Shown here one piece after another: positions 28,593 through 51,348 of a stretch of 64,000 nt of DNA (within the stretch, counting starts at the first letter, position 1; each line of letters starts with the position of its first letter). The position numbers and the translations under genes are program-made. Source of the DNA: an uncultured Alphaproteobacteria bacterium (GTDB taxonomy: Bacteria; Pseudomonadota; Alphaproteobacteria; RF32; CAG-239); NCBI GenBank assembly GCA_944391515.1, contig CALXTW010000007.1, positions 3,889 through 67,888 on the forward strand. Direction: 5' to 3'. A model generated the notes under the pieces. That model was not told the origin of the DNA and did not search any database. It saw only the letters and a list, made by a program, of their open reading frames with translations.

Positions 28593-29127
28593 AGAGTTTC
28601 AACACGATTCCAACAACCGCTCCGAGGCAAATATAGACTATCGGATGTAGTTTTACATAATGCACCATTACCATAAAAATAAGACCGATTATCGCGCAAG
28701 TCCAATTTGTCACCGCCATTTTTCCAATTGCGATTCCCGCACACAAAATCAAAGCCAACACCGCAGGGCGCACACCGCCCAAAACACTTTGCACACTCTG
28801 TGCCTGTCCAAATTTTCTAAGCAACTTGGCAATGATTACGATGATAATAACCGAAGGCGAAACCAAGCCCAAAGTTGCCGCGATTGAGCCCCAAAATCCG
28901 GCTGTGGTATAGCCGACATAAGTCGCCATATTCACTCCCAACGGTCCGGGAGTAGATTCGGACACGGCAATCATATCGGCCAAATTTTGCGTTGTGAACC
29001 AATCATAACGCGTCGTCAAATCAAACAAAAACGGAACGGTTACCAAACCACCGCCGATGGCAAACAAACCGATTTTGAAAAACTCATAAAACAACAAAAT
29101 ATAAATCATTTTCTTCTGCTCCGCCAA
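28591..29127 (-). CDS. chrA: chromate transporter, short-chain CHR family (second half-size subunit)
   Basis: 178 aa with FFKIGLFAIGGG..T.P and ESTPGP motifs. Confidence 0.85.
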   Translation of the reverse strand: MAEQKKMIYILLFYEFFKIGLFAIGGGLVTVPFLFDLTTRYDWFTTQNLADMIAVSESTPGPLGVNMATYVGYTTAGFWGSIAATLGLVSPSVIIIVIIAKLLRKFGQAQSVQSVLGGVRPAVLALILCAGIAIGKMAVTNWTCAIIGLIFMVMVHYVKLHPIVYICLGAVVGIVLKL

Positions 29128-29645
29128 TACAGCGCCAAACCTAGCACACCTGCCGCTACGACCAACAAAATCGGCGAAAGATTAAAGATAAGCAAACAAC
29201 CTAAAGATACCAAAAAAACGCCCAAAGCAAACTTACCGATAATTGCGGTTTTCCAGAGCTTAAACACCGCTTCGGCAATCAATGCCACGACGACGATTCG
29301 CGCGCCGGCAAAAGCCGATGCCACATATTCATTGGCCATATACAAACTCAAAATATGCGCCAATGCCATAATAATGATAAGCGACGGCATAATAATGCCG
29401 AGTGTTGCCACAATCGCCCCAATAACTCGTTTCATTTTATAACCGATAAAAGTTGCCACATTCACCGAGATAATTCCCGGTGTTGATTGGCCGATACAGT
29501 AATAATCCATCAATTCTTTGTCATCGGTCCAATGTTTTTTTGTCACCAATTCGGCCTGCAATAGCGGAATCATGGCATAGCCGCCGCCAAAGGTAAATAA
29601 ACCGATTTTAAAAAACGTCACAAAGAGTTCAAAAAGTATTTTCAT
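29106..29645 (-). CDS. chrA: chromate transporter, short-chain CHR family (first half-size subunit)
   Basis: 179 aa with FFKIGLFTFGGGYAMIPL and GQSTPG motifs. It overlaps its partner by 22 nt. Confidence 0.85.
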   Translation of the reverse strand: MKILFELFVTFFKIGLFTFGGGYAMIPLLQAELVTKKHWTDDKELMDYYCIGQSTPGIISVNVATFIGYKMKRVIGAIVATLGIIMPSLIIIMALAHILSLYMANEYVASAFAGARIVVVALIAEAVFKLWKTAIIGKFALGVFLVSLGCLLIFNLSPILLVVAAGVLGLALYWRSRRK

Positions 29646-29733
29646 ATCTCAAAAAAATCCGTTGTTAAAACGAGCTAAAGTTACTATATTATTGAAACAA
29701 ACAAAAGATTAAAAATACCAATAGAGGATAACC

Positions 29734-30861
29734 ATGCTGATAGCTATTCCCAAAGAAACTCGCGAGGGCGAAACCCGCGTTGCCGCCACCCCCGACATCA
29801 TCAAAAAATATATTCAACTTGGCTTTGATGTCCACGTCCAATCCGAGGCTGGTCTTGCTTCCGGCTTTAGCGATAAAGCCTATCAAGACGCCGGCGCCAA
29901 AATCACACCCGATATTGCCTCGACCTACAAAGGAGCGCAAATCATCCTCAAAATCTGGGCACCGGACCTCAAAGAACTCTCATCAATAGAAGCCAAGAGT
30001 TTTATCTTCGCCAACTTCCAAGCCTATGATCGCAAAGCCGAAATTCCTACTTTTGCAAGCAAAGGCTTAACCTGCTTTGCGCTGGATTTAATGCCTCGAA
30101 TTTCACGAGCTCAGAGTATGGATATTCTCTCCTCTCAAAGCAATTTAGCCGGCTACAAAGCCGTGCTTGAGGCGCTTAATTATCTTCCTTCAGCCGCCCC
30201 GATGATGATGACCGCCGCCGGCACCATTGCCCCGGCAAAGGCACTAATTTTGGGTGCGGGTGTTGCCGGACTTCAAGCCATTGCCACCGCCAAACGCTTA
30301 GGTGCGGTTGTCTATGCCTCTGATGTCCGCCCGCAAGTCAAAGAGCAAGTTGAATCTTTGGGCGCCAAGTTTGTAGAAGTCAAAACCGATGAAAATTTTG
30401 AAACCTCCGGCGGCTATGCCAAAGAAACCTCTAAAGACTACCAAGAAAAACAACACCTTGCCGTTGCCGAACAATTAACCAAAACCAACTTTGCCATCAC
30501 CACCGCGCTTATCCCCGGCCGTCCGGCACCCCTACTAATCACCAAAGAGATGTTAAAAAATATGCCGGCAGGTTCAGTCATTGTTGATATGGCAACCTCT
30601 CACGGCGGCAATGTTGAAGGTGCACAAGATAACGCCGTCAAAATCATTAACAACGTCACCGTTATCGGCAACTCCAATTTGGCAGCCAAGTTACCGGCTT
30701 CGGCCAGCCCCTTATTTGCCAAAAACATTTTTAATTTTATTGATACTTTTTATGACAAAGCAGAAAAAATCTTAAAACCTGACTTTAATGACCAGCTGAT
30801 ACACTCCACCTGCCTCTGTCATGACAAAAAAGTTATCCACCCAGCATTTATCGGAGCATAA
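29734..30861 (+). CDS. pntAA: NAD(P) transhydrogenase subunit alpha part 1 (dI)
   Basis: 375 aa with [20 protein letters not shown] and the [18 protein letters not shown] Rossmann motif. Confidence 0.95.
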
Positions 30862-38913: not shown

Positions 38914-40230
38914 CTACTTAATCTTAAAAATTGTTTTCTTCGGTTGTGCTGCTAAAAGTCTCTGAATATAGCGCCCTTGATAAAGATTAATTCCAAGCGA
39001 ATTTCCGATATCCACCGCATTAGGATCATCCACGCGACACAAAATCATCTTTGCTCTTTCTGCTCTGTTCACATAGTCTGTAAAATGAGTATCTTCTTTT
39101 ATCATATCCATAAAAGACGGATGCCAAATAATTTTCAGCAAATCGCCATCTAATTGCTCACGATCAATATATTTCAGTTTATCAACGGTAATACCATCAA
39201 TACAAATTTTATACCCTCGATATTGCGCAAAAGTTTTAGCCAAAATAAAAGCCTTGATATCATTTAAAATATCTACCAGTTGCAATTCCAACACAATAGT
39301 GGAACGCATAGACGGATTGATATTATCATCAAAAGCCAAAAAGTCATCTGAAAGAATGGTTGATACATTCAAATTCAAACTAAAATTACTGTTTAGCGAA
39401 CCATCATCGTGTTGACCGACACTTGCCAAAACACGTTTATCCAAAGTTTCAGTAAGGTGTAAAAACAACCATGGATTTGCTGTCAAATCCACATCAGGAA
39501 GTAATGTATCTCTTAAATCGGCAATAGACACAAACACCTCATCAAAAATCATTTGCGGAGGTGATTTTCCGATAACGGCACAAACTGACTGCCTACGGAT
39601 GAGGCTGGCAAAATCGGCCATTAGCAATGCCTTTTGTACTTTAGCCAACATATTAGGCGTCAATTCTCGTCTTAACTTACGAGAGGCATTCATCGCCGGA
39701 GAAGTATTTTGAGGATTTGCTCGTCCTCCTGCGGAGGGCGAAAAATTTTGATTTTGAGAAAGACTATCCATCACATTTCTGATAACAGATTTAAACTCTC
39801 CTTTTTCTGTTGCCAAATCAAAAAATTTCACAAATCCGGCTTGTTCTAAATCAAAAGCATTTGCCAAAAAAGGATCATCGTGAAAAATAAAACGAACCTT
39901 TATAAGACAAGCCTGTATTTCTTCACTTGCTTTTTTATTAAAGAAAACAACCATATCTTCATTAGGTAGACCAAAAATTTCGCCACCATTTTTCTGCGTA
40001 ACATTTTCAAAAGTTTCTATCAGATTTTGCCTTTGCAGTGATTTAAGCTTGGCACTTTTTAATTTACTTATATACACATATAAAGCCCGAAACTGATGAC
40101 TATTAGCATCAATTTTAGAAAGATAATCTAAAATTAAAGTATCACGTTTCAAATTACTAGTTGGCTCGGAGGGTTGAGCTTTAACCTTTTCCGGCAATTT
40201 AGGTGCACTTTTACTACCAAACAAAAACAT
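38914..40230 (-). CDS. degenerate GGDEF-like / degenerate EAL-like protein (paralogue 1)
   Basis: 438 aa with AGGAGG upstream. The N-terminal half resembles a GGDEF fold with PNEDMVVFF in place of GGDEF. The C-terminal half is EAL-like (RRQSV...DEVF, NLNVS, VLELQ, ICIDG, LLKI, YQGRY) but lacks most catalytic acidic residues. Confidence 0.65.
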   Translation of the reverse strand: MFLFGSKSAPKLPEKVKAQPSEPTSNLKRDTLILDYLSKIDANSHQFRALYVYISKLKSAKLKSLQRQNLIETFENVTQKNGGEIFGLPNEDMVVFFNKKASEEIQACLIKVRFIFHDDPFLANAFDLEQAGFVKFFDLATEKGEFKSVIRNVMDSLSQNQNFSPSAGGRANPQNTSPAMNASRKLRRELTPNMLAKVQKALLMADFASLIRRQSVCAVIGKSPPQMIFDEVFVSIADLRDTLLPDVDLTANPWLFLHLTETLDKRVLASVGQHDDGSLNSNFSLNLNVSTILSDDFLAFDDNINPSMRSTIVLELQLVDILNDIKAFILAKTFAQYRGYKICIDGITVDKLKYIDREQLDGDLLKIIWHPSFMDMIKEDTHFTDYVNRAERAKMILCRVDDPNAVDIGNSLGINLYQGRYIQRLLAAQPKKTIFKIK

Positions 40231-40240
40231 GCTTCCCCTC

Positions 40241-41521
40241 CTACAACATATCTTCCAAAATCTCTGGTTGAGAGCAAGCCGCCTTCATCAAAGCAGACAA
40301 AGATTTTCTCCTCTTCAAACATTGTTGAGCTGAACACTTAGCCGCATCAGGACATTTCCCACGAATGACCGCTGTTTCAATACTATCCATAAACGGACCT
40401 TGAAAAGCCGTAATTCCATGAGAAATTCCCCACTTTAAGGCTGCTTGAGAATCACATTTTGCCAAAATAAAATTCTCTTTTCCGAGAGTATCAATAACTT
40501 CCTTATATTTCGGATTAAAGGGTTCAAATTCGAGCAAAGGTTCCCAAAAGAGCTTAACCATATCTGGTTTAAGATTTTTCAAATTAAGCATTTTCAGAGC
40601 AGCCGGTTGCACTTCATCCAACACAATTTTATGACCGCCTTGATTGAGAATTTCTTTTGCTTCAAAATACAATGGCAAATTATTAAACACATCCATCAAC
40701 TGGACTTCAACCAATACCTTTTGCTCTGGTTTCAAAAAATTTCTAGCAAAATCAATAAACTCCCGAGAAAACACCGAAGACAAATTAAGATTAAGGCTGA
40801 TTTGCTTCGGCCAATTTTTCAATGCTGCAGAAAAAAACGAGGCTAAAGTTTTTTTATCCAATGTTTGCGTCATATATAAAAACAACCAATGATTTGCCAC
40901 CAAATCCAAGTTTTTATCAAATTGCAAACTCAAATCTTTAACAGCAATAAAAAACTCTTGAAACAAGATTTCAAATTGGTTCGCACCTTTAATTTTAATA
41001 ACACTCTGACGTTTAACCAATTCCGCTATATCTATTTCATCTAATTCAGCAATAACCCCATCAATTTCATTAGCTTCAATCGGACGTTTTTGAGGCAAAA
41101 GCAAAGCTTCATTTTGCACATCGCTTTCAAACATTTCCTCAACATATTTGTAGAAAGCCACAAAATTTGCAGGGAATTCAAATACCGTTGCAAATTGACT
41201 ACAATCCTGTCCATGCAAAACAGGATCTGCAGACAAACCTTGACGCAACTTTGTAACAGCTTCATCAACGGTATCTTGAGTAATATTTTTACCCAAAATC
41301 ACAAAATCGCCGTTAGACATGATGTAGAAGTAGCCACGAGCATTACCGACCACACTGTCAAAAAGTTTACCCAGAATTTTTACAAATTCAGGATGTCTGT
41401 GTTTAGGTTTCAACTTAGAAATACTAACATAGAGTACAGCATAGCCATACGAATTTTTAGAAATTCGATCTAAGGCGTCTAATAAATATCTTTCAGCTTT
41501 ACTACTTTGTTGCCTGCTCAT
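40241..41521 (-). CDS. degenerate GGDEF-like / degenerate EAL-like protein (paralogue 2)
   Basis: Clear paralogue of the previous gene (YAVLYVSISKLK..., SNGDFVILG in place of GGDEF; KRQSV, NLNLS, LVEVQ, KIVLDE, MVKLFW, FQGPF). The ATG at 41521 is preferred. A TTG at 41578 would overlap the kinase stop. Confidence 0.65.
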   Translation of the reverse strand: MSRQQSSKAERYLLDALDRISKNSYGYAVLYVSISKLKPKHRHPEFVKILGKLFDSVVGNARGYFYIMSNGDFVILGKNITQDTVDEAVTKLRQGLSADPVLHGQDCSQFATVFEFPANFVAFYKYVEEMFESDVQNEALLLPQKRPIEANEIDGVIAELDEIDIAELVKRQSVIKIKGANQFEILFQEFFIAVKDLSLQFDKNLDLVANHWLFLYMTQTLDKKTLASFFSAALKNWPKQISLNLNLSSVFSREFIDFARNFLKPEQKVLVEVQLMDVFNNLPLYFEAKEILNQGGHKIVLDEVQPAALKMLNLKNLKPDMVKLFWEPLLEFEPFNPKYKEVIDTLGKENFILAKCDSQAALKWGISHGITAFQGPFMDSIETAVIRGKCPDAAKCSAQQCLKRRKSLSALMKAACSQPEILEDML

Positions 41522-41574
41522 TTTGTTTTTACCCCACAAACTATTTTCAGTTATAAACTCCGAATAATATTTTA

Positions 41575-42666
41575 TCAAGAGTCATACTGTTTTGCTAACA
41601 ACTGAGATATTAAATCTTTCAACTCGGCAATATTATATGGTTTTTCTAAAAACAATGCATTTGGTGGAAGTTTCACACTTGTTTTTCCACTTAAAATAAT
41701 GGCTTTCAAACGAGAATTAATCAACAATAATTCTTGATAAAGAGCATCACCATTCATATTAGGCATCATCATATCTGTAATCAACAAATCAATATCAGGA
41801 TTTTCTTTCATAATATGAAGTGCCGCATAAGGAGTTTCCGCTAAAAAACAAACCCTGTCATCTTGTTTAATCAATTCTTCCAACAACGCACGTTGCATTG
41901 CATCATCATCAACAACTAAAATTTTGGCTTTTTTCTCAAAATAATCCACCAGCGGAAAATATATTGAAAAACAACTTCCCTTCCCTTCAATACTTTCAAC
42001 CGCTAAAGAGGCTTGATATTTTTTCAAGATTTTACAAACCGAAATCAACCCTAGCCCAATCCCTTGAGTAAAAGAGCTCACAAAAGGTCTAAAGATTTTT
42101 TTGAATAACTTCGGAGCAATTCCTACACCTTTATCTTGAATCCGTAGAGCCACGCATTTGCCTTTTTTACCCTTGATAACACAGTGTGACAATTGCTGAG
42201 GCGTCACCTCTGTTTCTTTGAGAGTTACATTAATTTTTCCACCCTCAGGCATAGCTCGACAAGCATTTTGTAATAAGTTATCTAAGAGCCGCTTCAGTTC
42301 CGATTTATCACCGCAAATCAGCATCTGTTTTTCAGGCACTTCGACTTCCACTTCTATATTTTCTGTAATAATTGCTTGCCATTCATCAATTGTAGATAAC
42401 ACCATATCTCTAATACAAATGAGTGAACATTGAGTTTTTTGCGACACAAGAATATCTTTAACTTGCAGACACGCTCTCTGCAAAACACCAATGACCAAAT
42501 CATTATTATGTTTACTTTTCTGCTCTGAAACGATTAAAGAATAAAGAATTGTCAGAGTATTTTTCAAGTCATGCAATTGTACTTCAATCAATCGTTTTTT
42601 CTTTTTTAATAAAACGATAATTCCCAATTCAACCAAAACCATTCCAAGCAAAAGAATATCGAGCAT
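41575..42666 (-). CDS. membrane-anchored hybrid sensor histidine kinase with a C-terminal receiver domain
   Basis: 363 aa with one N-terminal TM, H-box LHDLKNTL, N-box LLDNLLQNACRAM, G-boxes QDKGVGI and GIGLGL, then the receiver ILVVDDD...DLLITDMMMP...K. Confidence 0.85.
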   Translation of the reverse strand: MLDILLLGMVLVELGIIVLLKKKKRLIEVQLHDLKNTLTILYSLIVSEQKSKHNNDLVIGVLQRACLQVKDILVSQKTQCSLICIRDMVLSTIDEWQAIITENIEVEVEVPEKQMLICGDKSELKRLLDNLLQNACRAMPEGGKINVTLKETEVTPQQLSHCVIKGKKGKCVALRIQDKGVGIAPKLFKKIFRPFVSSFTQGIGLGLISVCKILKKYQASLAVESIEGKGSCFSIYFPLVDYFEKKAKILVVDDDAMQRALLEELIKQDDRVCFLAETPYAALHIMKENPDIDLLITDMMMPNMNGDALYQELLLINSRLKAIILSGKTSVKLPPNALFLEKPYNIAELKDLISQLLAKQYDS

Positions 42667-42813
42667 TCTATTATCCCCTTTAATTCAGTATTAATTTTGC
42701 CACATATCAAGTTAAAGAGGTGTTAAATTGCTTTTAAGAAGACTAAAAAATAATTGCAATTTTACCATCAACAATTATAATTCTTATAGATTTTAACCAA
42801 GAGGACGCAAGAT

Positions 42814-44262
42814 ATGTTAACCCCTAAGAATAACCTTTTTCCTATCCGCAACGACATTTTAGCTCGCGTTGCCAAAAGTTTTTTCAACAATCGTTTTGCT
42901 GAAATTGATTCTGTTCCAAGTGAAGTTTTTCCAGACGGTTCACAATGCTATCATCATGATATTACCAATGACCGTAACATTGTTCGCCAAATCTGCATGG
43001 CTATTTTAGGTTTTTGTCCCGAAGATGAAGATGGTAAAAATATATCTCTTTCTGAATATGCTCAAAGAGCATTAAAACGAGAGAAATTAGAACCAAGTAA
43101 AATCTCCGTCATCAACTCCGCTTGCATGGCTTGCCGCAAAGAACGCTACATCGTAAGTGACTTGTGCCGTTCGTGCATTGCCCGTCCCTGCCAAGTAAAC
43201 TGCCCCAAAAAAGCCATCAGCTTTGTTGATGGCAAAGCATTCATCGACCAAGATGCTTGCATCAAATGCGGACGTTGCCACGATGTTTGTCCATATTCAG
43301 CCATCATCAAGAATGTTATTCCTTGTGAAGATGCTTGCCCAGTTGGAGCCATTTCTAAAGACGCTGAAGGCAAAGAACATATCGACACTGAAAAATGTAT
43401 TTCTTGCGGTAAATGCCTAAAATCTTGCCCATTCGGAGCCATTGTTGAACGCTCTCAAATGGTTGATGTTCTCAAAACCATGCTTGATACAGATAAAAAA
43501 GTCATTGCCATGGTTGCTCCGGCAATTGTCGGCCAATTTGGCGGAACAGTGAATAATTTGGTTGGAGCTCTCAAAGCTCTTGGTTTTGACGATGTCATAG
43601 AAGTTGCGGTTGGTGCCGACATCACCACCCAAAAAGAAGCCGCGGAATTCGTTGAGCGCATGGAAGAAGGTAAAAACTTTATGACCACTTCTTGCTGTCC
43701 GGCATATTTCCGTGCAGCTCAAATTCATATTCCTGAGATTAAAGATTTTGTCTCTTCAACCAAAACTCCGATGTACTACACGGCAGAACTTATCAAGAAA
43801 GAACACCCTGATTGTGCGGCTGTTTTTGTTGGTCCATGCTTTGCCAAAAGAGTTGAAGCCGAAACCGACCCCAATGTTGACTATGTTCTGACATTTGAAG
43901 AATTAAATGCTATGTTCATTGGAGCCGGAATCGATGTTGCCACCGCACCTATGGCTGAATTCAGCAAACTCTCCTGCGCCCAAGGTCGCGGCTTTCCATT
44001 AACCGGAGGAGTTGCCGGAGCCGTTGCATCTTTGGTAGAAGGCAAGACAGAAATCCGTCCTGAAAAGATTGATGGATTGAGCACAGAAAACATCAAACTC
44101 TTAAAACGTTACGCCACCAAAGGCTGCGAAAACAATATGCTTGAAGTCATGTGCTGCCCAGGCGGTTGTATTGCAGGACCTGGCTGTATCGCCATGGCAA
44201 ACAAAGCTACCATTCAAATCAAGAACTACACCGCTCAAGGTGAAGATTTGAAAAACAAATAA
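42814..44262 (+). CDS. [FeFe]-hydrogenase catalytic-subunit-like protein (monomeric type with N-terminal ferredoxin-like clusters)
   Basis: 482 aa with two CxxCxxCxxxCP motifs (CIKCGRCHDVCP, CISCGKCLKSCP) plus extra Cys. H-cluster signatures are TTSCCPAY, GPCFAKRVE and EVMCCPGGCIAGPG. Confidence 0.85.
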   Translation: MLTPKNNLFPIRNDILARVAKSFFNNRFAEIDSVPSEVFPDGSQCYHHDITNDRNIVRQICMAILGFCPEDEDGKNISLSEYAQRALKREKLEPSKISVINSACMACRKERYIVSDLCRSCIARPCQVNCPKKAISFVDGKAFIDQDACIKCGRCHDVCPYSAIIKNVIPCEDACPVGAISKDAEGKEHIDTEKCISCGKCLKSCPFGAIVERSQMVDVLKTMLDTDKKVIAMVAPAIVGQFGGTVNNLVGALKALGFDDVIEVAVGADITTQKEAAEFVERMEEGKNFMTTSCCPAYFRAAQIHIPEIKDFVSSTKTPMYYTAELIKKEHPDCAAVFVGPCFAKRVEAETDPNVDYVLTFEELNAMFIGAGIDVATAPMAEFSKLSCAQGRGFPLTGGVAGAVASLVEGKTEIRPEKIDGLSTENIKLLKRYATKGCENNMLEVMCCPGGCIAGPGCIAMANKATIQIKNYTAQGEDLKNK

Positions 44263-44263
44263 G

Positions 44264-44301
44264 AAAAAAACGGGATGACATATTATCATCCCGTTTTTTT
44301 T
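44264..44301. terminator. bidirectional terminator
   Basis: A-run, ACGGGATGA-cat...-TCATCCCGT, then a T8 run. Confidence 0.8.
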
Positions 44302-44307
44302 CATACT

Positions 44308-45828
44308 TTAGTCCACATTAAGAGCGTTTAACATTTCCACCACTTGAGAAGTGTAGGATTGTTTTTCTCCCCAGTTTGTAAAGCCAAAATTTTTACCTTT
44401 AGCCCAAACTTTCATCGGAGAATCTACAGATTCATATCCAGCCAACAGATGAATCAATTTGGCAATTTCCGAAGCTGTCGCCTCACACCAAAATCCATCC
44501 AAAACTTTTTCCCATTTTTTCCAAGAAATATAGTTGCAATCCTCTTCCAAGAAACTCTCCAGCACTTCCATTTGCTCATCAAAAATTTGCTCGGCATAAT
44601 CATTGAATTTCTCAAGTACCGGATAAGTTGCTATCAATTTTTTGAGTTTTAATGCAAACCACAAAGGCATTGCCTGAAAATAGCTGATATCTCCGGCCGC
44701 AAAACTTGCTGTCTTACAACAAAGCTCAAGCCATTTTTCTTCGCGTGGTGAAAAGACGCCTCGTTTCAGATAAGCATCAATATGTTCCCACTTGTCCAAT
44801 TTCAATGATTCACGGTCAATGATATGCAAACGTTCGCAAGTTTCCTCTCGCCAAGCCTCTGCAATCAGCTCTAACAAATCCAGAACTAACCTTCGATTAT
44901 CGCTGACTTTTTGTTGTACTTCAGCAAGCAAGGACAACATTTTAGCACAAGTTTCTTCGTTAGCGATTCGACTTGATAACCCCGCTATCAAATCATTTTC
45001 TCTGGCGGCATCTACAAAATCATCCAAATACGTCTCAACCAAAGCAAGTCTATCACCAATTTTGAAAGAAGGTGTATCCAAAACCTCCGACACTACTTTA
45101 CAAACTGCTGGCGACGACTTTTTCAGAGACAATATTCGCAATACTTTTTGCACCCCTTGCAAATGAAATTGTTGTTCTTCAGAGGTTAATTTCATCGGTT
45201 GTTGCCGAAAGAAGTACAGAAAATTAACATAATCAGCACAAACATCGACTGGCCTTTGCAACCGAGTCAGCCACAAATAAAGAACATCCATAGATTTCAA
45301 AGCTATCCAATACTCATCTTCGTGATACTCTTGATAAATATCCCACAGCTCTTTAACTGAAGCATCTCTCAGATTTGTTTGCTTTTTCAAAAGCTGTTCT
45401 AACACATCCAACAAAACCGGATATTGATAAGCATATTCGCTCAAAATATTCAGGAATTTGTCATTAATTGATGTATTGTGCAACAAAGACTGAACACAAG
45501 CCTTTTTACGTTCTTCATTTGCCTGTTCCTGACAATAAACTGCAGCAACAAACAAACCATACATTTTACCCGCACAATTGAGAATGTTTTTCTTAAAGCC
45601 TTCCCAACAATCATGTTTGGAATAATAAGTCAAAAACGCCTCAAACAAATGACAAGCCCATGAAGGAAACCAATCATCTACCGGAAATTTCTCTCCTTTG
45701 AGAAGGTGGTGAATCATAAAAATGAAAGCTTTTTCTTCCAATTCTTCTCTTTGAGAGTAACGGCAATTAAGCTTTTTTGCCAAACTCATCGCGTCATTAA
45801 AGACGCTTAATGCAGATTTCTTTTCCAT
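44308..45828 (-). CDS. hypothetical protein (large all-helical orphan)
   Basis: 506-aa ORF with a promoter-like TTGACA upstream and a terminator downstream. No recognised motif. Confidence 0.65.
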   Translation of the reverse strand: MEKKSALSVFNDAMSLAKKLNCRYSQREELEEKAFIFMIHHLLKGEKFPVDDWFPSWACHLFEAFLTYYSKHDCWEGFKKNILNCAGKMYGLFVAAVYCQEQANEERKKACVQSLLHNTSINDKFLNILSEYAYQYPVLLDVLEQLLKKQTNLRDASVKELWDIYQEYHEDEYWIALKSMDVLYLWLTRLQRPVDVCADYVNFLYFFRQQPMKLTSEEQQFHLQGVQKVLRILSLKKSSPAVCKVVSEVLDTPSFKIGDRLALVETYLDDFVDAARENDLIAGLSSRIANEETCAKMLSLLAEVQQKVSDNRRLVLDLLELIAEAWREETCERLHIIDRESLKLDKWEHIDAYLKRGVFSPREEKWLELCCKTASFAAGDISYFQAMPLWFALKLKKLIATYPVLEKFNDYAEQIFDEQMEVLESFLEEDCNYISWKKWEKVLDGFWCEATASEIAKLIHLLAGYESVDSPMKVWAKGKNFGFTNWGEKQSYTSQVVEMLNALNVD

Positions 45829-45934
45829 ATTTAGAATAATTTAAAAGTGAATAAAATAATAAAAATATGCTTTTATCAATAAGTCACATTGCCCATTTTG
45901 TCAAGAAAAAGGCGGAACCAAAGTTCCGCCTTTT

Positions 45935-46711
45935 TTACTCAAGATGATAATCTTTTAAATTCCATCCTTTTCGCAACAGAAGTTGCTTATTGCTTTCAGA
46001 TAAATAAGGTCTTGCATCAAAAGCAAAACCTTGCGTATCAAGGCGCTGAATAACCTTTTCCCGTAAGAGATTTGCACCCAACCAAGCCTCAATCAAACCT
46101 GTTGAGCCACAGCTAATTAACTCCTGAGCTTCATCTTCATCCAAAACCATTTTATTAAGCAACAAAATGACTTCATTTACACCTAAGAGAAAAACATTTT
46201 TCTCCCAAATCATCATTCTGAAATTTCCCAACATATCCAACCAGACATCTGTCGGACAATGAATCTGCGGCGGATAAAAAGACGCCTCTAAAGACAAATT
46301 AAGCTGCATTACAGACTTTCTTAAAAACAACATTGAAGTCTGTAATTTGATAGAGGTATGTTCAACCAAAAAAATAAAATCTTTCTTCTCTAACCCCAAA
46401 CCCTTGACCTTCTCATCAATCAACTTTTCAAGCTTGAGCTTTTTGACTTTTTTCTCAGAAAGTTTTAACACATCTCTAACTTGGGAAGCATAATCATAAT
46501 AAAGCAAATAGCGCTTAACTGTTTTTGCATTCCCGCAATCGAGTAACTTTCTCCATAAGTCATCGGGTAACCATCTCACTCTAAAGACTTGCCTAAGCTT
46601 AAAGAATTGACGTTTTTCAATCAGGTCGGCACACATTTGTGTACTGATTTGGCGCTTGTATAGACACCTCCAAAAGCATACTTCTTGCTTCAAATTTTCT
46701 AATAATTTCAT
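45935..46711 (-). CDS. hypothetical protein
   Basis: 258-aa ORF. Its stop is immediately followed by the terminator GGCGGAAC-tttg-GTTCCGCC plus a T run (minus strand). Confidence 0.6.
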   Translation of the reverse strand: MKLLENLKQEVCFWRCLYKRQISTQMCADLIEKRQFFKLRQVFRVRWLPDDLWRKLLDCGNAKTVKRYLLYYDYASQVRDVLKLSEKKVKKLKLEKLIDEKVKGLGLEKKDFIFLVEHTSIKLQTSMLFLRKSVMQLNLSLEASFYPPQIHCPTDVWLDMLGNFRMMIWEKNVFLLGVNEVILLLNKMVLDEDEAQELISCGSTGLIEAWLGANLLREKVIQRLDTQGFAFDARPYLSESNKQLLLRKGWNLKDYHLE

Positions 46712-46867
46712 CTTCCAAAAAATTTAAATTACACAATAAGAATTAATCACTCACAAAATAAAGTCTTTTATGTATCATGTCAAACATTTTCTCTATTTTG
46801 TCTATTGATTCTCTCAAAATATTATGTTACAAAAACTGCAATAACTTTATTTTTAATTTTATATATT

Positions 46868-47746
46868 ATGAAACGAAAAAACCTTACGGTCACTGTCACT
46901 CATGTAGGACACCCGTACCCAGAATTCCAAGGAGGTAAAACACCTCAAATTTCCATTGCTGTTTTAGCAGAAAACAATTATTTCTGTTTTCCGGCCTCTC
47001 CCCTAAGCATGCTTATCCAAAAGGGAGATACAATAACCGTCACCCCTGCGGGAGAGCTCAAAAAGGTCAATAATTTAGAGATTAACGCGCTCGTTAACCT
47101 TTCAGAATTCGACGGAACAATAGACAGAGTATCCCACCCTTTGTGGTTAAAAAATCCACATACAAACTTTAACAGCTTATATGTGGTCATCATGACACAA
47201 GGAAACATTTTTCCGGTAAAAGCCAATTGGAATACCTTGCTTCTCAGAAGTGGCGACAATATTACATTGGAGCTCGACAACTATGAAATCCTCAAATTCA
47301 AAAACAAAACTCTAAAATTTGAGTTCAATGCCACCTCCAAACAAGCAATATCACTAAAAGGAAAAATCAAACGCGCAACATTTCCCTTAATGTGGCCCAA
47401 CCACCAAGGAATCATGGGATTAAAATCATTAGTGTTAATGGAAGACCTAAAATTCAAAATTCTTCCTGCAACACCGGAATCAATGTTTTTGGAAGATGGC
47501 GACAGGGTAGAAATTAGTGATAAGAGTATAAAGAATGCACGCATTCCGCAAATTCGTTTTCTTGACAGTGCCTTGCCGGAATATTACGAGGTAAAATACA
47601 TCGGACATCCATTTCCGACCTTGTTTTCCAATGGGCAAAAATCTCTGGGGCGTTTTCTTATAACCCCAAACAATGAGCTCTATCTCGTTCCAGCAACTGA
47701 GACAAATATGCTCACCCAACCGGGAGACAAGATTATTAATTTTTAA
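46868..47746 (+). CDS. hypothetical protein made of four tandem ~75-aa repeats
   Basis: Start taken at the ATG at 46868 (MKRKNLTV...). The repeats begin VTHVGHPYPEF..., IDRVSHPLWLK..., IKRATFPLMWP... and VKYIGHPFPTL..., and each ends in a (P)GD.I motif. Confidence 0.65.
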   Translation: MKRKNLTVTVTHVGHPYPEFQGGKTPQISIAVLAENNYFCFPASPLSMLIQKGDTITVTPAGELKKVNNLEINALVNLSEFDGTIDRVSHPLWLKNPHTNFNSLYVVIMTQGNIFPVKANWNTLLLRSGDNITLELDNYEILKFKNKTLKFEFNATSKQAISLKGKIKRATFPLMWPNHQGIMGLKSLVLMEDLKFKILPATPESMFLEDGDRVEISDKSIKNARIPQIRFLDSALPEYYEVKYIGHPFPTLFSNGQKSLGRFLITPNNELYLVPATETNMLTQPGDKIINF

Positions 47747-48479: not shown

Positions 48480-49196
48480 TCATAATTTTACAAACAGATG
48501 TGTTGGACAATTATCACCAATTGTACCATATCTGTTTTTAGCCGACAATTGCCAAACCACATAGGGGGCGTGAGCCGCCACGGGCGCAACCATCCAACTA
48601 AAAAGATCTGAAACCGTTGGAGCATCAACTGCTTTCAGCAATTCATCAATCTCGTTGAAATGCTGCTCCATTAGTTTGGAATCTTCTCTTGTCAGGAACT
48701 CTAACTTTAACTCCTTAGCCTTCCTAATTACTTCTTTAGGCATCGCCGGGATCCAACACACTCCAGCAAAAATTAGATTTTGCGAAAGTGCAATGCCACG
48801 ATATCGACCGGATTTTTCAACTATCAGATAGGGATAGTCTCTTTCCGTATCATTCACCAAATCCTTAAGATTATCGACACCTATTCCGTTTGGCACTTCC
48901 AAATGATTAATATTTTCAGAAACACGACAAATCGGAAATTTAATTGTAAACAAATGCTTTCTTAAGACATCCAACACTTGTTGATCGTGGTCTTTATAAG
49001 GAGCATAGCCTCTTGGCACAAAATCCTGAAAAGCTTCGTAGACTTTTTTCCAATTAGCTTTTTCTGCCCACTTCTGCCATTCTTCTACCGACTGATTACG
49101 CAATGGCATAACACCAGCCTTACTTGTCTTTTTTCCAAACATAATTATAAAAATTAAATTAACAAATAATAAAAAATTTATTCTCGTATATCTCAT
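48480..49196 (-). CDS. hypothetical membrane-anchored protein
   Basis: ORF with N-terminal hydrophobic anchor MRYTRINFLLFVNLIFIIMF. The ATG at 49196 is preferred to the track TTG at 49205. Confidence 0.55.
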   Translation of the reverse strand: MRYTRINFLLFVNLIFIIMFGKKTSKAGVMPLRNQSVEEWQKWAEKANWKKVYEAFQDFVPRGYAPYKDHDQQVLDVLRKHLFTIKFPICRVSENINHLEVPNGIGVDNLKDLVNDTERDYPYLIVEKSGRYRGIALSQNLIFAGVCWIPAMPKEVIRKAKELKLEFLTREDSKLMEQHFNEIDELLKAVDAPTVSDLFSWMVAPVAAHAPYVVWQLSAKNRYGTIGDNCPTHLFVKL

Positions 49197-49213
49197 TTTA
49201 GACAAAAAAGCAA

Positions 49214-49243
49214 CAAAAAAATGAGTCAGATTTTACTGACTCA
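49214..49243 (-). terminator. rho-independent terminator after the 49260-49952 gene
   Basis: TGAGTCAG-atttta-CTGACTCA, with the T run on the minus strand. Confidence 0.7.
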
Positions 49244-49259
49244 CTTTTCCTCCCAAAAA

Positions 49260-49952
49260 TCAAAACTCTCTCCAAAAAACCGGACGCACAAAACCACCGA
49301 CACGAGCCTTAAGAAATACTTGTTTTTGAGCATCCGCAAGACGTACCAGAACTGCACTTGTTTCATCTGCTTCATTCGAACTCCAATACAAACCTGATAA
49401 GCTCACCAAATCTAGTTCTTTCAAGGCCTTATTAATCCGTTCTTTATTGTCTGAAATTTTAATCAATTCATAGGTTGACGGCAAAAAAGCCTCACCAGCA
49501 TTCAGTCCATTTTGAGCAAAATCATAACACCACTCTGCAGCTTCCGCTTTCAAACGACGCTCTTTGGTTTCCGCTAAAATATTCTGCGTAGCTATAGCTC
49601 CGTCTAATTCTTTCTGATTGAGTTTCACCCTCAAAGCGGATGTTGACCAAGGCAAACGTTTTTCCTCCAAACAAACGGCTAAAAAACGCTTTCCCTCTAC
49701 ATACACAATTATACCTTTGACGACTTTATCATCTCTGATGTCAAAAGAAAAAGTGTTATCCTCATAACAGAACATTCCCGAGCAAGGCAATTTCTCTTGA
49801 TGAGTTTCATCATCATTGTTTTGTCCTACTTGAGAAAAAGCCACTTTGTTATCAGTTTTGACTTTAGTTTCAAAATAGCGAAAAACTTCCTGAGGAGAAA
49901 GCCCTAGTCTTTGGGCATACTTAAATAACTTTACAAATTTTTCTTGTTCCAT
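49260..49952 (-). CDS. DUF1566-like (Lcl C-terminal-like) protein, cytoplasmic-type paralogue
   Basis: 230 aa with GMFCYEDNTFS, LPWS, GEAFLPSTYEL, YWSSNE and a VRPVFW end. Homologous to 55990-56538 and to the C-terminal modules of 21656-23704. Confidence 0.75.
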   Translation of the reverse strand: MEQEKFVKLFKYAQRLGLSPQEVFRYFETKVKTDNKVAFSQVGQNNDDETHQEKLPCSGMFCYEDNTFSFDIRDDKVVKGIIVYVEGKRFLAVCLEEKRLPWSTSALRVKLNQKELDGAIATQNILAETKERRLKAEAAEWCYDFAQNGLNAGEAFLPSTYELIKISDNKERINKALKELDLVSLSGLYWSSNEADETSAVLVRLADAQKQVFLKARVGGFVRPVFWREF

Positions 49953-50337: not shown

Positions 50338-51348
50338 TTAGAAGTGCTCATCACAACGTTTGATAAGTTCTTCAATGTTTTCAGGCGGCCAACCCGGAGT
50401 ATCCATACCCAAATGAATACCCATCTTAGCCAAAACTTCCTTAATTTCATTCAAAGACTTACGACCGAAGTTCGGAGTACGCAACATTTCAGCTTCAGTT
50501 TTTTGAACCAAATCACCGATATAGATAATATTGTCGTTCTTCAAGCAGTTAGCAGAACGAACTGACAATTCAAGTTCTTCAACCTTCTTCAAGAGATTAC
50601 GATTGAACGGTAATTCTTCTTTTTCAGCTTCAACTTCAGCTTCCGGTTCATCAAAGTTAATGAACGGTTTGAGTTGGTCTTGCAAAATGCGAGCTGCAAA
50701 GGCAACAGCATCTTCAGGAGAAACGACACCGTTAGTATCAACAATCATTGTCAACTTATCATAGTCAGTAACTTGACCGACACGAGTATTTTCAACTTTG
50801 TAAGATACTTTTTTAACCGGAGAATAAATTGCATCAACAGCAATAACACCGATAGGAGCATCGGCAGACTTATTCATGCTAGCCGGAACATAACCTTTAC
50901 CGGTATTAACTGTTAATTCCATATTGATTTTTGCACCGGCATCCAGATTGCAAATAACCAAGTCAGGATTTTTAATTTCAACATCATGACCGGCATCAAT
51001 CATAGCTGCGGTAACCTGACAAGGTCCTTCAGCTTTCAACGTCATGGTTTTAGAACCTTCGCTGTGAACAGCAACGGCCAAACATTTAACGTTGAGAACG
51101 ATATCAGTAACATCTTCTCTGACACCCGGGATAACCGAAAATTCATGCAAAACACCGTTAATTTTGATAGCGGTGACTGCGCCGCCTTGTAAAGAAGAAA
51201 GCAAAACTCTTCTCAAAGCGTTACCTAAAGTTAAACCAAAACCTCTTTCCAAAGGTTCGACCACGATTTTGGCTCTGTTTCCGCCTTCGCTGGGCACAAC
51301 TTCCAAATTCGTTGGTTTAATAAGTTCTTGCCAATTTTTTTGAATCAC
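50338..51348 (-). CDS. rpoA: DNA-directed RNA polymerase subunit alpha
   Basis: 336 aa with an N-terminal domain ([14 protein letters not shown]) and a C-terminal domain (LELSVRS.NCL). Confidence 0.97.

Follow-up and report, generated by a model that had tools for sequence, protein, structure and literature searches.

A 2025 study (Welsh et al., Nat Microbiol; PMC12578642) identified group B [FeFe]-hydrogenases as the gut's principal H2-forming enzymes linked to ferredoxin and pyruvate:ferredoxin oxidoreductase (PFOR), and hydrogenases together with their maturases had been published in 2016 from metagenome-assembled genomes (MAGs) of human-gut Rhodospirillales (PMC4967309). Assembly of the H-cluster is considered to require three maturases, HydE, HydF, and HydG. 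For archaea, Giardia, Entamoeba, and Mastigamoeba, whether maturation follows another pathway is recognized as unsettled (Greening et al., Cell 2024; PMC11216029). A HydA without maturases has also been noted in Rhodospirillum rubrum (PMC4967309). Here we describe a group B hydrogenase gene, hydA, in a 64,000-nucleotide stretch of DNA (the window, positions 3889-67888 of contig C7) from a gut alphaproteobacterial MAG labelled G000; coordinates given without a contig are positions in this window. In G000, hydE and hydF have been deleted and hydG has been kept, and the family to which this bacterium belongs bears on whether another route to the H-cluster exists.

The hydA gene (42814-44262, plus strand) encodes a protein of 482 amino acids and is apparently monocistronic. 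Its product scores 520.4 bits against the NCBIfam profile TIGR04105 (monomeric [FeFe] hydrogenase, group B; cutoff 450) over residues 6-460, whereas the group A models fall far under their cutoffs (160.5 bits versus 406 for TIGR02512). This agrees with an earlier assessment made from the letters and their open reading frames (ORFs), hereafter the sequence-only reading, which had likened the protein to the monomeric group B type rather than to the clostridial group A type. The Pfam domain Fe_hyd_lg_C (PF02906) matches at 208 bits over residues 228-456, and the H-cluster domain (residues 228-457; 43495-44184, plus strand) contains all three of the H-cluster signatures recognized earlier: TSCCP at residue 292 (L1; 43687-43701), GPCFAKRVE at residue 340 (L2; 43831-43857), and EVMCCPGGCIAGPG at residue 444 (L3; 44143-44184). 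N-terminal to this domain, Fer4-family matches of the ferredoxin 4Fe-4S type span residues 104-215 (Pfam), bearing out the ferredoxin-like clusters that had been described there. The accessory iron-sulfur region delimited by Pfam and alignment (residues 104-205; 43123-43428, plus strand) carries 16 cysteines, enough for four [4Fe-4S]-type sites, and these 16 residues are invariant in 26 HydA homologues, as are the five cysteines of the H-cluster motifs (Cys294, Cys295, Cys342, Cys448, and Cys452), which comprise the four ligands and the proton-relay cysteine. The extension of about 100 residues with additional cysteines at the N terminus is also real. It comprises approximately residues 1-95 (42814-43098, plus strand), is predicted from the AlphaFold model to form a four-helix domain (helices at residues 8-26, 31-38, 50-64, and 79-88), and holds Cys45, Cys61, and Cys68, which are kept in none of nine non-alphaproteobacterial sequences. 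Because TIGR04105 aligns over residues 6-460, the extension belongs to the family profile.

An AlphaFold model of HydA built from 33 homologues (predicted local distance difference test, pLDDT, 83; predicted template modeling score, pTM, 0.82) was compared with the PDB, and all of the matches listed are solved [FeFe]-hydrogenases, at 3.3-3.8 Å over approximately 355-380 aligned columns. One of these, 1hfe_L, superimposes with a root-mean-square deviation of 3.7 Å over 355 aligned columns and a TM score of 0.64 normalized to the target. Homologues of HydA that are Nar1/NARF-like and have no H-cluster have lost the residues specific to the H-cluster motifs. The G000 protein does not show this loss: it retains all motif residues, and wherever 28 maturase-complete homologues are invariant (121 columns) it carries no change. 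It also lacks the traits of the sensory group C (HydS-type) proteins, since the chain stops about 25 residues past L3 and Pfam detects neither PF04060 nor a PAS domain. The sequence-only reading had allowed that the gene might prove to encode a Nar1-like or sensory protein stripped of its H-cluster ligands; with every motif residue in place, that outcome is not what we found. The window gene is a genuine group B, ferredoxin-dependent-type [FeFe]-hydrogenase.

Neither hydE, hydF, nor hydG lies in the window, as had been noted, but to call the hydrogenase simply "without maturases nearby" understates the situation, in which hydG is found elsewhere in the genome and hydE and hydF are deleted. The only Hyd maturase gene in G000 is hydG on contig C6 (C6:66173-67594; 477.6 bits, cutoff 312), whose product carries the CX3CX2C motif of radical-SAM enzymes and, in its C-terminal part, CX2CX22C. 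In G000, the hidden Markov model (HMM) for HydE matches only HydG itself (78 bits), the HMM for HydF matches only the GTPase domains of housekeeping GTPases, and a tblastn search of the genome using HydE and HydF from G013, the nearest species, recovered nothing further and no fragment of either gene. The sequence-only reading had proposed that a complete genome with no maturase at all would point to a nonfunctional or non-hydrogenase role; the genome-wide search gives part of that picture, with two of the maturases missing and the third present.

Comparison with congeners shows how the two genes disappeared. In G003, G013, and G007, hydF sits directly upstream of a hydG of the G000 type, and relative to these genomes about 1.2 kb is reduced to about 13 bp in G000 (C6:66070-66083), on one contig and between collinear flanks of 84-94% identity; the last ~15 nucleotides of hydF apparently remain at the junction. 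The hydE gene, which lies between MATE and SulP transporter genes in congeners, has similarly gone from about 1.1 kb to about 19 bp (C21:29328-29347), again with collinear flanks within a single contig. Both genes were lost from G000 by precise mid-contig deletions, and hydG was kept.

The hydF deletion recurs outside this assembly. We identified ten contigs, from independent samples, that encode an identical FlbT protein 4 kb downstream of this locus, of which three lack hydF (L126, L127, and L132) and six keep it. In the three hydF-less contigs, a ThiF-family gene is followed by hydG with a junction sequence identical to that of G000, so the deletion is a real allele circulating in the population. 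L126 and L127 are identical to G000 over 9.6 kb (C6:62585-72200), and their assemblies apparently derive from different sampling projects, which indicates that one clone of the hydF-less strain has spread among hosts. A scan of Joint Genome Institute metagenome contigs for the exact hydF junction gave no matches, in a collection that probably does not include this gut species.

To place G000 among its relatives, we searched 151 genomes of the family, each at least 95% complete, with HMMs for all four proteins (HydA-B, HydE, HydF, and HydG). TIGR04105 scores above its cutoff in 133 of them. Eleven of these 133 have neither HydE nor an intact HydF, roughly 10 times the chance expectation (a descriptive figure that ignores kinship), and eight of the 11 are without HydG as well. 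Strict co-absence of HydE and HydF is found in seven of the 133, compared with about 1.1 expected under independence, again a descriptive value only, as related genomes are not independent. The hydA-bearing genomes with incomplete sets include four without any of the three maturases (G047, G053, G105, and G129), two with only a sub-cutoff HydF paralogue (G110 and G126), two with only a 236-residue C-terminal fragment of HydF (G145 and G157), and three with HydG only (G000, G045, and G078). HydF alone is missing from G023, G093, G109, and G160, HydE alone from G101, HydE together with HydG from G071, and HydG alone from G002, G015, G046, and G065; the sequences that flank hydG in G001 are essentially missing from the G002 assembly. 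In G013, hydE and hydF lie on different contigs. As for the sub-cutoff paralogue, genus g8 carries a second HydF-like gene scoring about 250-296 bits (cutoff 325), for example G020:C11:30338-31486 adjoining the canonical hydF at 29062-30222, and a gene of this type is the sole HydF-like gene left in G110 and G126.

An older loss is visible in G145 and G157, which are each other's closest relatives. In comparison with G140, the counterpart of hydG in these genomes measures only 451 and 545 bp and that of hydE only 90 and 102 bp, while hydF keeps just its C-terminal half, in every case mid-contig. The deletions are common to both genomes, so the maturase losses predate their split. Between the two, hydA has a synonymous divergence (dS) of 0.667 and a ratio of nonsynonymous to synonymous divergence (dN/dS) of 0.067; the gene has therefore been constrained since an old loss, and in this family hydA does not as a rule decay once the maturases are gone. 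The remaining 236-residue ORF (G157:C12:34924-35583; G145:C34:33800-34459) matches the half of HydF that serves dimerization and cluster binding and lacks the GTPase domain, and it could be either a relic or a minimal scaffold.

In G000, hydA and hydG are intact and show no detectable relaxed selection. These estimates are pairwise (NG86), with synonymous sites near saturation in several comparisons. Between G000 and L132, both of which are hydF-less, hydG differs by 40 nucleotides and five amino acids (dN 0.0045, dS 0.120, dN/dS 0.038), and the neighboring alr, tatD, HAD, and ABC genes give dN/dS values of 0.04-0.06. For hydA, the comparison of G000 with G013 yields a dN/dS of 0.037, and pairs of maturase-complete genomes yield 0.024-0.048. 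The HydA replacements specific to G000 are few, conservative, and outside the motifs. More broadly, every maturase-deficient HydA keeps all three motifs, and these proteins break between zero and five (mean 1.1) of the columns invariant among the 28 maturase-complete sequences; in a leave-one-out control, the maturase-complete HydAs themselves break zero to six (mean 0.8), and G000 breaks none. The hydG locus is a recombination mosaic with hydF-positive strains, with a mean divergence of 4.4% that falls to about 1.7% around the hydF junction, which indicates that the deletion is younger than the full hydG divergence.

With regard to metabolism, G000 encodes a PFOR (1808 bits; C4:62610-66137), and no [NiFe]-hydrogenase large subunit was found in the genome, leaving HydA as the only hydrogenase with its usual electron source available. 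Two candidate explanations for the remaining or missing parts of the maturation pathway were considered and rejected. HydG is not moonlighting as the thiamine tyrosine lyase ThiH, as ThiG is absent from G000, and CN/CO machinery of the HypCDEF type does not stand in for the maturases, as HypD is absent as well. The H-protein of the glycine-cleavage system has been implicated in making the dithiomethylamine bridge of the H-cluster (PMC11736057); we did not find it (PF01597) in G000 or in 19 genomes of the family and order, including genomes with full HydEFG sets. Most of the larger genomes of this class, Alphaproteobacteria, do encode it.

The pattern of conservation suggests that HydA probably still serves a useful function after the loss of the maturases. 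What that function is can be stated less firmly. That HydA still makes H2 with a non-canonically assembled H-cluster is a serious possibility, to which we assign somewhat less than even weight; we favor it because hydG is still constrained in G000 and because all H-cluster residues are kept. HydA would then re-oxidize ferredoxin reduced by PFOR and release H2, with its [2Fe] subcluster built by a route independent of HydE and HydF. In G000 this route would still draw on the Fe(CO)2(CN) synthon from HydG, and in some sister lineages it would dispense with HydE, HydF, and HydG altogether. It might depend on substitute enzymes, the subcluster might assemble on HydA itself, or the cells might take up a precursor from the community; in the scavenging variant, the iron-carbonyl-cyanide precursor would come from neighboring gut bacteria. 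The broader proposition, that group B HydA acquires its H-cluster in vivo by an undescribed route using neither HydE nor HydF, and in sister lineages no HydG either, appears to us doubtful on the genomic evidence.

Several observations weigh against continued H2 production, and some against continued function of any kind. In the characterized pathway, HydE dimerizes the HydG synthon and HydF is the scaffold, and both are needed (PMC11736057). Our search of G000 identified no substitute for either, HypD included, and the case for HydA function after the loss is an evolutionary one, drawn from sequence comparisons. Among the surveyed genomes, maturase absence has been verified by synteny only in G000, G145, and G157, and the hydE deletion is seen in a single assembly, that of G000. 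The genomes analyzed are all MAGs. The G000 assembly is a 44-contig MAG of 1.67 Mb, compared with 1.55-2.04 Mb for closed genomes of the genus, so that relocated or foreign copies of hydE and hydF could lie on an unbinned contig. The G000 deletions appear fairly recent, and the low dN/dS may in part be a legacy of maturase-complete backgrounds. Complete loss of hydA with all maturases also happens in whole lineages of the family; HydA, HydE, HydF, and HydG have all been lost in 11 genomes, including five of five in genus g31.

These points can be assembled into a different account, in which the deletion of hydE and hydF ended H2 production and we are seeing an early stage of pathway decay, with hydA and hydG as relics whose conservation reflects a short elapsed time and recombination with maturase-complete strains. 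The mosaic structure of the hydG locus and the shallow divergence around the junction between two hydF-less lineages are as this account would have them, as are the status of G000, L126, and L127 as a single clone and the family lineages that have parted with hydA and all maturases. The subgroup has, moreover, already shed a HydS-like/PP2C module as well as the ~590-residue second hydrogenase-like genes found in its relatives. We nonetheless consider decay unlikely. The hydG genes of the two hydF-less strains differ by 35 synonymous-type changes against only five amino acid differences, with no frameshift or stop codon in four assemblies, and the G000 HydA alters none of the 121 invariant columns. 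The older loss in G145 and G157, where hydA has remained constrained (dN/dS 0.067) over a dS of 0.67, is also difficult to reconcile with relics in waiting.

A role for HydA that is independent of the [2Fe] subcluster, such as electron transfer or sensing through its multiple [4Fe-4S] clusters by analogy with eukaryotic Nar1/NARF, with hydG kept for some other reason, would account for the eight hydA-bearing genomes that have no HydE, HydG, or intact HydF and still keep hydA under purifying selection, and it is compatible with the invariance of five cluster-binding sites. This explanation does not predict that the H-cluster residues should be invariant in every maturase-deficient lineage, as they are (the proton-relay cysteine of TSCCP, the lysine and glutamate of PCxAKxxE, and the bridging cysteine), although that argument is weak, given that unchanged pocket residues would also be expected by chance at the divergence observed. 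It also leaves hydG to be explained, which is strongly constrained in G000 and present in G045 and G078, genomes that likewise lack HydE and HydF; a ThiH-like role for HydG has no partner, as ThiG is absent. We judge this role to be just as improbable as decay. Far less probable than either is an artifact of assembly or binning, in which hydE and hydF have moved, or foreign copies reside, on contigs that were never binned. The fragmentation of the MAG permits it, and completeness scores for MAGs do not cover accessory regions. The ancestral copies were deleted inside contigs, however, the same hydF junction is present in three other assemblies, no fragment of hydE or hydF remains in the G000 assembly, the co-absence of two unlinked genes recurs far above chance in genomes at least 95% complete, and the maturase losses in G145 and G157 are verified by synteny.

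The hydrogenase itself is nothing unusual in this family of small-genome gut Alphaproteobacteria, where it is inherited vertically. The G000 genome is scored 100% complete with 0.9% contamination, and its GC content (~39%) equals that of the hydA region. The closest relatives of its HydA (52-97% identity) sit on contigs of MAGs from the guts of humans, roe deer, and rabbit that bear the title "Alphaproteobacteria bacterium", in keeping with the alphaproteobacterial context assigned earlier. In a large protein collection, the best 120 matches (61-96% identity) without exception fall within this alphaproteobacterial clade. The nearest non-alphaproteobacterial homologues recovered, from Bacillota and Olsenella, are 38-41% identical. 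In a maximum-likelihood tree, the alphaproteobacterial HydA sequences form a clade with 100/100 support, joined by long branches to the sequences of Bacillota and Actinomycetota. We rejected recent horizontal transfer of hydA, which the sequence-only reading had suggested checking by phylogeny, on the basis of the genome-like GC content, the monophyly of the alphaproteobacterial sequences, and the near-universal presence of the gene in the family. The accompanying statement that [FeFe]-hydrogenases are uncommon in Alphaproteobacteria does not hold for this lineage, in which 133 of 151 genomes encode one and for which the enzymes were already published in 2016.

Both HydA and HydG are heterogeneous within the family. 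Two group B HydA types occur under the same genus label, the window type with TSCCP and a type about 45% identical to it, with TSCCA, on a separate long branch. The TSCCA type is represented by L155, L156, L159, and L015 (from G001, G008, G009, and G002, respectively), and these genomes also carry the hydrogenase-like genes of ~590 residues. HydG proteins separate by their TIGR03955 scores into at least three classes, at approximately 850-955, 720-790 (genus g11), and 476-523 bits. The HydG of G000 belongs to the last of these, which is found directly beside hydF in the genomes compared; this low-scoring class is widespread, with homologues of 65-70% identity annotated as HydG in Cloacimonadota and other phyla. 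Most genomes with a TSCCA-type HydA have the high-scoring class.

Upstream of hydA, a divergent intergenic region of 147 nucleotides (42667-42813), as reported in the sequence-only reading, separates its start at 42814 from the ORF of a hybrid sensor kinase that ends at 42666. A sigma-70-like promoter candidate for hydA, TTGCAA-16-TATAAT (42754-42781), is a consensus match only and has no statistical weight, with five such sites compared with 4.7 expected in shuffled sequence. Downstream, a hairpin (44264-44300; 17-bp stem, with A- and T-runs on its flanks) is likely a bidirectional terminator common to hydA and a convergent orphan gene of 506 codons. The kinase (363 residues; 41575-42666, minus strand) has HATPase_c and receiver domains by Pfam, and beyond it lie two paralogues of 438 and 445 residues (38914-41578, minus strand) with sub-threshold Pfam matches to EAL (24.1 and 25.5 bits; cutoff 31.3). 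Pfam detected no GGDEF domain in the genes divergent from hydA. Of the hybrid-kinase and degenerate GGDEF-EAL operon described earlier, the kinase and the EAL-like pair, at sub-threshold scores, therefore stand, and the GGDEF domain does not.

In several genera, the EAL-like pair lies no more than about 4 kb from hydA, whereas the kinase occupies the position divergent from hydA in the subgroup of G000, G013, and G012 and is absent from it in other congeners, where the EAL-like pair faces hydA directly with no kinase between. In other genera (for example, L047:2744-5705), the interval that separates the EAL-like pair from hydA holds genes for a HydS-like protein of 593 residues and a SpoIIE/PP2C phosphatase. 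The architecture of this 593-residue protein (Fer4, Fe_hyd_lg_C, and the PF04060 Fe-S motif) marks it as putatively sensory, of the HydS type. Neither it nor the phosphatase is present in the 64-kb window; the window subgroup has lost this module, and a hybrid histidine kinase occupies the place beside the EAL-like pair. The redox- or H2-linked regulatory connection suggested in the sequence-only reading fares unevenly in this comparison. The HydS-like and PP2C genes beside hydA in other genera lend weak support to an H2- or redox-linked regulatory neighborhood as the ancestral state, but the kinase is missing at this position in several congeners and is a subgroup-specific replacement, and any control of hydA by the kinase is conjectural. 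No operator common to the upstream regions of hydA and hydG was found. The hydG gene is immediately preceded by an 11-bp inverted repeat (TTATAAGTTAT ... ATAACTTATAA; G000 C6:66083-66172) with half-sites that are rare in the genome (two and five copies), and this repeat is missing upstream of hydA.

Three genes without a Pfam match follow hydA (44308-47746), encoding proteins of 506 (minus strand), 258 (minus strand), and 313 (plus strand) residues. Their positions are kept across the genus, with only 26-52% identity in more distant congeners. Farther on, two minus-strand ORFs of 241 and 230 residues with no recognized domain (48480-49952) lie between rpoA (50338-51348) and rplQ/L17 (47840-48385), which adjoin in the other species of the genus compared.

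The enzyme itself belongs to a known, characterized class already reported for this lineage; the maturase-loss result is new. In a limited literature search, we found neither bacterial maturase deletions that are dated and proven by synteny beside complete sister strains, nor their recurrence across genera, nor an estimate of purifying selection on hydA after the loss. The value of the system lies in its natural bacterial deletion mutants, which stand beside maturase-complete sister strains only 3-6% diverged, and in the evolutionary evidence indicating that hydA is still needed once the maturases are gone. If a route without HydE and HydF does exist, close pairs with and without the maturases offer a place to look for it. 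Annotation-based estimates of gut H2 production that count hydA alone may include enzymes of uncertain maturation. Should hydA instead be a decaying relic, what is left is an unremarkable group B hydrogenase from bacteria already known to have one.

Set against the group B hydrogenases of Bacteroides and other gut bacteria (PMC12578642), the G000 enzyme has the same TIGR04105 architecture of an N-terminal region, ferredoxin-like clusters, and an H-domain, and it is likewise encoded by a monomeric-type gene in a gut fermenter with PFOR, for which electron flow from PFOR through ferredoxin and HydA to H2 would be expected. It differs in that its nearest non-alphaproteobacterial homologues are only ~38-41% identical, in that the L3 motif of the alphaproteobacterial clade is a distinct variant, MCCxGGC, and in that two of the three maturases are deleted here. 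Azospirillum sp. CAG:239 and CAG:260 and Acetobacter sp. CAG:267 (PMC4967309) are, like G000, uncultured gut Alphaproteobacteria with the same enzyme set, but that study stressed the complete maturase sets of its genomes, whereas HydE and HydF are missing here, as in ~8% of the surveyed HydA-positive members of the family. The closest parallels in this respect are the maturase-less archaea, Giardia, and Entamoeba, Mastigamoeba with its partial set, and R. rubrum, in all of which the H-cluster motifs are intact and some or all of HydE, HydF, and HydG are missing. In contrast to the archaeal and protist cases, the loss in this family, whose members are bacteria known from genomes alone, is datable, being visible as deletions beside maturase-complete sister strains at 94-97% nucleotide identity, and the purifying selection that followed it can be measured.

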